Sequence record: PQ471516.1 | DNA length: 64,000 nt | Origin: Escherichia phage Turkey5 | Reading direction: 5' to 3' (one strand) | Shown here: positions 29,567 through 30,694 of the stretch, in pieces | Position numbering within the stretch: the stretch's first letter is position 1 | How the letters are laid out: every line of letters begins with the position of its first letter | Program-made: the position numbers and the translations under genes | Notes under the pieces: model-generated | The model's database searches: none | The model's input: the letters and a program-made list of their open reading frames with translations, nothing else | Told to the model about the DNA's origin: nothing

Positions 29567-30694
29567 TTAGATGTTATCGCCAATTGGTTGTATTGGTGAT
29601 TGCCATGCCAAAGTACAGATAATTTTAATTTGACCATAAGCACTGTTGTTTACAGAGTCGTTGAAAATACAAGAGATAATTTCATCTTTATCAGAAACAG
29701 TGTGGTTAACTTCGTTAACAATAAAACGCATTTTACGGTTAATGTCAAAATAATCAACTGGAGCAATTACAGTACCACCAATATCTTCTTGTGCTTCACC
29801 ACCGAAACGAACAAACATTTCGTTAACTGGTAAATCATAAGCTTGTTGTACATCAACATCGATATTAGTAACTAGGTATCCAGCAGGACATGTACCAATA
29901 ACTAGAACGGCGTTAGTCCATGAATGATCAATAGTGTTTACAATAACCAAGGAATCTTTACCTGGAGCACCTGTAGCACCTGGCAGACCTTGTTCACCTT
30001 GAATACCCTGTTTACCACGGAATTCAATACCAGTACTCCACTCTTTGGAAGGCGGGGTTGTGGTGTTTACAATATCAACATAGTATAGTTTACCATCTGT
30101 GGTATTATAGAAGCAGTAGTCTTCAGGAAGGTCAGTAATACTAGGGAATACATCACCAGTACTATCAATATGGAATCGTCCACGTAGACCTTGTGGGCCA
30201 CGGAATTGTACACCATCACTCCAAGTTGCAGTTACTGATTGATAGAAATAAACTTTACCATCAGTTGTATTATAGAATGTATAGTTGTTTACGAGGTTAG
30301 TAGTTGGGAATGTATCACCAGAGCTATCAATATGGAATGATTTACCAGCTTCACCAGTATCACCTTTACCAAATTCTACAACGTTCCAAGTACTATTACT
30401 GTCAGTTGCGGCGTTGGTTTTGAAATATAGCTTACTAGTTCCGTTTGCAAGACTAAGATAGCACCAGCCAAGTTCTTCACCTACTCGGAATGATTCATCT
30501 GGGATTTCAAAACCTATCTCGTTTGGATAAAAGTTTTTACCATTTGTACCATCTCTACCAACAACAAGACCTAGATCTTGAATTGTGTTGTCAGCGTAAG
30601 TTACGATCAAATGTCCAGCAGAGTTGATAACTAAACTCTTTATGCCGGAATTATTGCATGAACTACTAGTCCCATTATTAAATGAAATTGTCAT
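29567..30694 (-). CDS. fibre protein with collagen-like G-X-Y runs and duplicated ~45-aa module (start corrected from 30838)
   Basis: ATG 30694 (MTISFNNG...) has AGGAAA RBS; the track N-terminal 48 aa are hydrophobic junk overlapping the divergent promoter region. Seven-triplet run GKQGIQGEQGLPGATGAPGKD plus shorter G-X-Y runs. Confidence 0.55.
   Translation of the reverse strand: MTISFNNGTSSSCNNSGIKSLVINSAGHLIVTYADNTIQDLGLVVGRDGTNGKNFYPNEIGFEIPDESFRVGEELGWCYLSLANGTSKLYFKTNAATDSNSTWNVVEFGKGDTGEAGKSFHIDSSGDTFPTTNLVNNYTFYNTTDGKVYFYQSVTATWSDGVQFRGPQGLRGRFHIDSTGDVFPSITDLPEDYCFYNTTDGKLYYVDIVNTTTPPSKEWSTGIEFRGKQGIQGEQGLPGATGAPGKDSLVIVNTIDHSWTNAVLVIGTCPAGYLVTNIDVDVQQAYDLPVNEMFVRFGGEAQEDIGGTVIAPVDYFDINRKMRFIVNEVNHTVSDKDEIISCIFNDSVNNSAYGQIKIICTLAWQSPIQPIGDNI

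Follow-up and report, generated by a model that had tools for sequence, protein, structure and literature searches.

A collagen-like fibre protein with interleaved beta modules and a jelly-roll head in a RaK2-like jumbo coliphage

Results

The fibre gene and its domain map

The DNA analysed here, referred to below as the window, is a stretch of 64,000 nucleotides from Escherichia phage Turkey5 (PQ471516.1). Positions 29567 to 30694 of its minus strand hold the coding sequence of a collagen-like fibre protein of 375 amino acids (stop codon 29567-29569). Annotated orthologs are also 375 amino acids long and open with MTISFNNG. The protein matches PHROG 13565, a tail protein family of RaK2-like jumbo phages, over its full length, with residues 1-375 aligning to positions 1-375 of the profile (E 1.1e-209). 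The open reading frame (ORF) listing gives a longer frame, 29567-30838(-), which starts at TTG 30838 and encodes 423 amino acids. A preliminary description of this DNA, made from the letters alone, had called the additional 48 codons spurious. We agree, because AGGA stands 7 nucleotides upstream of ATG 30694, because the orthologs have the shorter length and start (most homologs are called from MTISF), and because the extension overlaps the divergent gene 30807(+). Positions 30695-30838 would then be an intergenic region and the start of that divergent gene.

The protein is built as an N-terminal domain, four runs of Gly-X-Y (G-X-Y) triplets separated by three beta modules, and a C-terminal domain. 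The N-terminal domain (residues 1-45, 30560-30694(-)) has three predicted beta strands and is the most conserved segment, with a mean identity of 75%. Run 1, GRDGTNGKN (residues 46-54, 30533-30559(-)), has three triplets, and each of its three glycines is present in 54-59 of 59 homologs. It is followed by beta module A (residues 55-110, 30365-30532(-)), which self-comparison identified as a diverged repeat copy, and by the three triplets of run 2, GDTGEAGKS (residues 111-119, 30338-30364(-)). Beta module B (residues 120-165, 30200-30337(-)) has the form FHIDSSGDTFP...YTFYNTTDGKVYFYQ...W...VQF. Run 3, GPQGLRGRF (residues 166-174, 30173-30199(-)), again has three triplets; its last residue, the invariant F174, doubles as the opening residue of beta module C (residues 175-226, 30017-30172(-)). 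Run 4, GKQGIQGEQGLPGATGAPGKD (residues 227-247, 29954-30016(-)), has seven triplets, and the C-terminal head domain occupies residues 248-375 (29570-29953(-)).

Modules B and C, which share the pattern FHIDS..GD.FP...Y.FYNTTDGK.Y, are 53% identical in protein (E 2e-19), a likeness that is recognisable also in the DNA, and modules A and C are 28.6% identical over 35 amino acids (E 0.003). By sequence comparison, modules B and C are a genuine duplication and module A is a third, diverged copy. The preliminary description had seen the duplication of B and C but had missed the third copy. It had placed the seven-triplet run at about 29950-30020, which is where run 4 lies, and had mentioned two shorter runs, each following a module. 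Short runs are present and do alternate with the modules, but there are three of them, four runs in all, and every module has a run on both sides, since run 1 precedes module A.

Shuffling the fibre protein 20,000 times never produced a run of at least seven triplets, and four runs of at least three triplets appeared in 0.01% of the shuffles. In all six frames of the window, GKQGIQGEQGLPGATGAPGKD is the sole G-X-Y run of at least four triplets. No paralog of any part of the fibre protein was found within the window.

Conservation of the runs and of the head

A homolog search of 5.8 billion proteins gave 61 clusters, 59 of them full length (353-387 amino acids), and tblastn matches to the gene came from 74 phage records, 71 of which cover at least 80% of the protein. 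The full-length tblastn matches belong to RaK2-like jumbo phages of Escherichia, Klebsiella, Salmonella, Erwinia, Yersinia, Serratia, Cronobacter, Pectobacterium and Xanthomonas. Among the 59 full-length homologs the positions of all four runs are kept. Runs 1-3 have 3/3/3 triplets in nearly all of them, and run 4 has seven triplets, six triplets, or 3+3 triplets around a two-residue Gly-X-Y-X-Y-Gly break; a few have three to five unbroken triplets. The break, which corresponds to a one-residue deletion, is a common variant of run 4, and natural collagens tolerate breaks of this form. Some homologs have an alanine in place of the last glycine of run 4.

Within the runs, the mean column entropy is 0.27 bits at glycine, 2.28 bits at X and 1.77 bits at Y. 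Several homologs, for example P0010 and P0056/57, carry clean insertions or deletions of whole triplets. A lysine at Y, then glycine, then aspartate or glutamate occurs frequently in the runs; this is a stabilising pattern in collagens. Because glycine is near-invariant while X and Y are free and the triplet counts are almost fixed, the aligned runs display the selection pattern that is expected of collagen-type packing and not that of a generic linker.

The head is conserved to a mean of 62% identity and a minimum of 48% across phages of Escherichia, Klebsiella, Erwinia, Xanthomonas, Yersinia, Cronobacter and Pectobacterium, compared with the 75% mean of the N-terminal domain. Its C-terminal tip (residues 365-375, 29570-29600(-)), Q.PI.PI.DNI, is conserved to the last residue, with I375 unchanged in 30 homologs. 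Free fibre tips are seldom so constant, which points to a structural or docking role for these residues.

Predicted structure

We modelled the monomer with AlphaFold2 (AF2) from 30 homologs. The beta modules are predicted confidently (predicted local distance difference test, pLDDT, 82-92, the range of module A; module B was also given 92-95). The C-terminal domain has eight strands at a pLDDT of about 88, and both the model and the fold comparison identify it as a jelly-roll beta-sandwich. It resembles phage capsid cement, or decoration, trimers: those of Ralstonia phage GP4 (8h89_J), Helicobacter pylori phage KHP40 (gp16, 7dou) and cyanophage Pam1 (7eel_H). Further fold matches are other viral jelly rolls, a siphophage baseplate protein, a short-tail-fibre protein, TNF-family ligands and the exosporium protein ExsFA/BxpB.

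Pfam and NCBIfam scans returned nothing beyond a Collagen match below threshold that falls in run 4, the beta module had no profile match to the Pfam phage tail fibre repeat families (e.g. Phage_fiber_2) or to DUF2793, and no C1q or TNF Pfam domain was matched in the fibre protein at E up to 1. A family-profile search of all PDB chains gave nothing meaningful; its top match was an artificial ‘tribody’ with a Gly/Ser linker.

Two natural variants

Two syntenic orthologs are natural variants of this architecture. P0061 (locus L006, 8001-9251, on contig logan:SRR21686213_291 of a distant RaK2-like phage) has 416 amino acids. It retains the N-terminal domain, module A and the C-terminal domain, and 62 uninterrupted G-X-Y triplets replace everything from run 2 through run 4, including modules B and C. 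The Pfam Collagen threshold is reached in such a long-collagen ortholog: the best E value among the aligned homologs, 3.2e-34, is most plausibly that of P0061. The fibre formed by P0061 would be several-fold longer. P0060 (locus L007, 8001-10868, on contig logan:SRR30543657_465) is a natural chimera of 270 amino acids. It keeps residues 1-112, hence the N-terminal domain and module A, at 79% identity, and continues from exactly run 2 with an unrelated C-terminus, which has a weak match to DUF4376.

Because P0060 and P0061 both keep the N-terminal 110 residues or so, these are the constant part of the protein and likely its virion anchor. Judged from these two genes together, the shaft is interchangeable with plain collagen.

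The repeat unit in unrelated proteins

A HMMER search with residues 107-250 against 1.84 billion representative proteins gave 59 clusters at E ≤1e-3, only about three of which are orthologs. About 55 unrelated protein clusters (P0062 to P0118) contain the unit of a G-X-Y run and a beta hairpin; some of them have signal peptides and as many as 14 near-identical units in tandem. One example is a protein of 1133 amino acids that has a signal peptide and repeats the unit 14 times, with eight or nine G-X-Y triplets and then MYVDYNTGIVYVRDPEDNTKWVPLNG in each repeat. In these clusters Pfam detects the collagen part; several are tandem arrays with bona fide Collagen scores, and one carries a phage Tail Collar domain. 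No Pfam family covers the hairpin module in the unrelated clusters, where it repeatedly drew small spurious matches (SUKH-4, Secretin_N). Weak tblastn matches were seen in tail-fibre and minor-tail proteins of N4-like, Ruminococcus and mycobacterial phages. On this evidence, the repeat unit of short collagen-like rods and beta-hairpin modules is widespread and has not been curated by Pfam.

Presence in virions and candidate fibres

Two orthologs are virion components. The ortholog in phAPEC6, gp253, is 79.5% identical to the fibre protein and was found in virions by electrospray ionization tandem mass spectrometry with 14 unique peptides and 65.6% coverage; for comparison, the major capsid protein reached 74.9% and the sheath protein 68% (PMC7247149). 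For the ortholog in CBB, CBB_228, virion mass spectrometry gave 13 peptides, which cover 44% of the protein (PMC5259590).

Several fibre types of these phages have no assigned protein. CBB has six short baseplate fibres of 28.6 +/- 2.7 nm and tail whiskers of 119 nm (PMC5259590). In phAPEC6 and 121Q, fibres stand on the capsid and at three rings of the sheath; those on the capsid look trimeric in negative stain. If all 48 G-X-Y residues were helical, they would span about 14 nm at roughly 0.29 nm each, and with three nodes, the head and the anchor the fibre would measure 25-35 nm, which is a rough estimate. This value is close to that of the short baseplate fibres of CBB and far from that of the whiskers. 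We therefore rejected the whiskers as the structure formed by this protein.

The surrounding genes

The 6-kb region round the fibre gene is 99.7% identical in DNA to Escherichia phage vB_EcoM_JNE01 (Asteriusvirus) and about 80% identical to the Asteriusvirus jumbo coliphages PBECO4, 121Q and phAPEC6, which belong to the RaK2-like group. By these identities the window comes from a RaK2-like jumbo coliphage. In well-annotated relatives the 375-amino-acid protein comes first in a string of genes on the same strand, in the tail module, and is followed by a colanidase tailspike, a virion protein of 300 amino acids and several very large tail-fibre proteins. On the other flank of the fibre gene, the relatives have three small genes of a structural or baseplate type, a NUDIX gene and a gene for a T4 gp15-like sheath-completion protein. 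A promoter and terminator scan around the fibre gene gave nothing informative.

The colanidase-type tailspike, a possible partner of the fibre protein, lies at 27411-29552(-) and has 713 amino acids when read from ATG 29552. The gap between this start and the stop codon of the fibre gene is only 14 nucleotides, and the two genes are probably co-transcribed. The ORF listing starts the tailspike at TTG 29558; ATG 29552 is likelier and has a GGGGG Shine-Dalgarno sequence. The protein matches PHROG 6117. Its central region matches WcaM, a bacterial colanic-acid protein, at E 4.5e-29, which is far under the family cut-off, and also pectate-lyase-like folds; these matches are consistent with a colanic-acid depolymerase. 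Annotation of the tailspike is inconsistent in relatives (loci L001, 6395-8537, and L004, 4629-7834): the vB_Ec-M-J record has two coding sequences for one tailspike, and in the phAPEC6 record the entire tailspike region is unannotated, with gp254 and gp255 missing.

The virion structural protein of 300 amino acids (26500-27396(-)) shares with the tailspike an N-terminal adaptor domain of about 105 amino acids, M[SA]VFSNLEGTM...GD.Y....IYIK..G.W (tblastn 34% identity, E 4.5e-18). In RaK2 this domain is a stand-alone gene of 115 amino acids at the equivalent position (ORF061, E 4e-22), and it also opens CBB_227 and the gene adjoining P0061. In the relatives' loci it lies at L003 10078-10425, L005 5172-5498 and L006 9263-9598. 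A hairpin motif of the adaptor domain weakly resembles the beta module of the fibre (E 0.003).

Discussion

In this study, we mapped a protein in which four short collagen-like runs alternate with three copies of a beta module between a conserved N-terminal domain and a jelly-roll head. We propose that it is a conserved structural protein of RaK2-like jumbo phages, and that it probably forms a short homotrimeric fibre on the tail or baseplate. The preliminary description had taken it for a fibre-type protein, and this is borne out by the match to PHROG 13565, by the orthologs in the virions of phAPEC6 and CBB and by the place of the gene at the head of a string of tail-fibre and tailspike genes.

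Our model addresses how such a fibre could be assembled and attached. The C-terminal jelly roll may trimerise and nucleate folding, as its closest structural relatives do. The head trimer would put three chains in register, which would allow the seven-triplet run and then the three-triplet runs to adopt collagen-type triple helices. The three beta-hairpin modules may act as local nodes of trimerisation and registration, stabilising helices that are not long enough to be stable by themselves. The N-terminal 110 residues or so, that is the N-terminal domain and module A, would be the constant anchor to the tail or baseplate, and the parts distal to run 2 are exchangeable in evolution, as the two natural variants show. 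The conserved head could provide a conserved contact, either with a cell-surface structure or with the adaptor-bearing proteins encoded downstream, for which it would be a dock.

This model assigns the G-X-Y runs a different role from the ones first suggested for them, which were to trimerise the fibre or to set its length. The preliminary description had made its collagen-like reading depend in part on the conservation of the runs, and across 59 homologs they do keep their places and their triplet counts, with glycines that hardly vary. However, runs of three triplets are not long enough to bring about trimerisation by themselves, and it is more likely that trimerisation comes from the jelly-roll head and the beta modules, with the runs as connecting rods. 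We rejected the idea that relatives set fibre length by varying the number of triplets, since these numbers hardly depart from 3/3/3 and 6-7; the distant ortholog with 62 triplets is the sole exception.

Several observations weigh against a short collagen-like fibre on the tail. The Pfam Collagen family (PF01391) matches residues 227-245 with only 15.1 bits (E 0.02), under the gathering threshold of 27.2 bits. Every G-X-Y run has a pLDDT below 50 in the AF2 monomer, although this is expected for a chain without its partners. To our knowledge, collagen peptides that are stable alone are all far longer than three-triplet runs. The high coverage of gp253 in phAPEC6 would fit a copy number above that of six baseplate fibres. 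The RaK2 ortholog, gp062, was predicted to be structural, yet it was undetected in virion mass spectrometry (PMC3622015). Last, the literature that we found on RaK2-like phages does not mention the collagen-like nature of the protein or its location in the virion. The RaK2 adsorption-complex paper does not treat it, a term search of the phiKp24 paper found neither collagen nor cement proteins nor whiskers, and literature searches on phiKZ gp145/146 and collagen, like the fEgEco12 paper, gave nothing relevant.

Some of these points would be explained if the G-X-Y runs were flexible, non-helical glycine-rich linkers in a protein that is monomeric or oligomerises in some other way. Three of the four runs have only three triplets, the Collagen score and the model confidence are low, and many homologs have the two-residue break in run 4 or an alanine for its last glycine. 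However, a linker would not hold a glycine periodicity, fixed counts and clean whole-triplet insertions and deletions with free X and Y in 59 homologs. Nor would one expect P0061 to have 62 perfect triplets at the same place, or many unrelated proteins to alternate the same module with genuine collagen repeats, and breaks of the kind seen in run 4 occur in natural collagens. We thus find flexible linkers quite improbable. It is easier to imagine, although we still hold it to be unlikely, that the protein is a ‘hairy’ or decoration fibre, in which a cement-like jelly-roll trimer sits on the surface of the capsid or sheath and the remainder projects outward. The trimeric-looking capsid fibres and the three tail rings of phAPEC6 and 121Q still lack a protein, the 65.6% coverage of gp253 is near the capsid (74.9%) and sheath (68%) values, which hints at many copies, and the head fold matches cement proteins. 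But distal fibre knobs are equally typically jelly-roll trimers, the protein is not the small, single-domain product of a head gene, and its gene lies in a tail-fibre string and not in the head module. The chimera P0060, which keeps the N-terminal 112 residues and swaps the rest, argues for N-terminal anchoring. In addition, RaK2 and GAP32 have orthologs, and the CBB authors were aware of no report of whiskers on these two phages; the whiskers of CBB, at 119 nm, are much longer than the roughly 30 nm that we expect for this fibre.

The head might also be thought to make the protein the primary receptor-binding protein, with the jelly roll setting the host range. It would be a distal C-terminal knob encoded in a receptor-binding neighbourhood, beside a depolymerase tailspike, and the jelly-roll knobs of other viruses bind receptors. 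However, host-range determinants are usually the most variable part of a fibre, and the head is unlikely to be one because it is about as conserved as the anchor across host genera. We therefore give this role very little credence. It is possible that the head binds a conserved secondary receptor.

A more speculative version of our proposal, which we would put forward only as a long shot, is that the fibre is the docking stalk of a branched receptor-binding complex. The head or the shaft would bind the adaptor domain, and the unit of a G-X-Y run and a hairpin would represent a class of node-and-rod trimeric scaffolds that is spread widely in phages and bacterial surface proteins. The distribution of the adaptor gives a hint in its favour. 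An adaptor-bearing gene adjoins every locus with a headed fibre that we examined, whereas the neighbour at the head-less P0060 locus, a single negative case, has no adaptor.

These results have some practical consequences. As a virion component that is abundant, universally conserved and plainly built like a fibre, the protein is a concrete candidate for the unassigned fibres of RaK2-like phages such as phAPEC6, 121Q and CBB. A structure of the repeat unit would show how helices of three triplets are stabilised, and this could aid the design of trimeric scaffolds; we found no solved structure of the unit, or of the Pseudomonas phage protein gp230 discussed below. For annotation, the gain is a correct start codon, a domain map, and the label ‘collagen-like tail fibre protein’ in place of ‘hypothetical protein’.

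The fibre has counterparts among known systems. EPclA and EPclB, side-tail proteins of prophages in enterohaemorrhagic Escherichia coli, are likewise E. coli phage fibre proteins with collagen-like parts. They have been found experimentally to be dumbbell-shaped trimers, whose collagen triple helix depends on a C-terminal trimerisation domain (Ghosh et al. 2012, PMC3368898). They differ in having one long collagen domain, an alpha-helical coiled coil and Pfam phage-fibre repeats, whereas the fibre described here combines four very short runs with small beta modules and a jelly-roll head, and it matches no Pfam phage-fibre family. The same alternation of G-X-Y runs and beta hairpins is found in gp230 of the Pseudomonas jumbo phage 201phi2-1, a virion tail fibre of the phiKZ gp145/146 type (for example, GTDGTNGTNGTNGTDGKN ... 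DAWVADDTGNLWIYNGTDWFDAGPFRGPKGEDG). The two proteins share a form of the hairpin module, ...D.TG.L[WY]IY.G..W...G.FRG..G, which is detectable by sequence. However, gp230 is much larger, repeats the unit more often and contains additional helical insert motifs. Identity is only about 27-29% over the module region, and the N-terminal anchor and C-terminal head have no detectable relation.

The order of parts, an N-terminal anchor, a collagen-like stalk and a trimerising C-terminal jelly-roll head, is that of C1q/TNF-like proteins (e.g. Bacillus BclA) and of the PRD1 spike protein P5. The fibre has the same order, but its stalk is broken three times by beta modules, and the likeness of its head to C1q/TNF-like domains is one of fold, not of sequence membership. 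The cement proteins of GP4, KHP40 and Pam1 are trimeric, single-domain jelly rolls of 124-155 amino acids on capsids, and the fibre head is only 9-16% identical to them in sequence. Unlike these proteins, the fibre has 247 residues ahead of its jelly roll and is encoded among tail genes. The T4 fibritin foldon and the trimerisation domains of collagens XV and XVIII are functional analogies only, and the scores were not significant. In sum, the fibre is a further, fairly ordinary case of the known phage design of collagen-like trimeric fibres.

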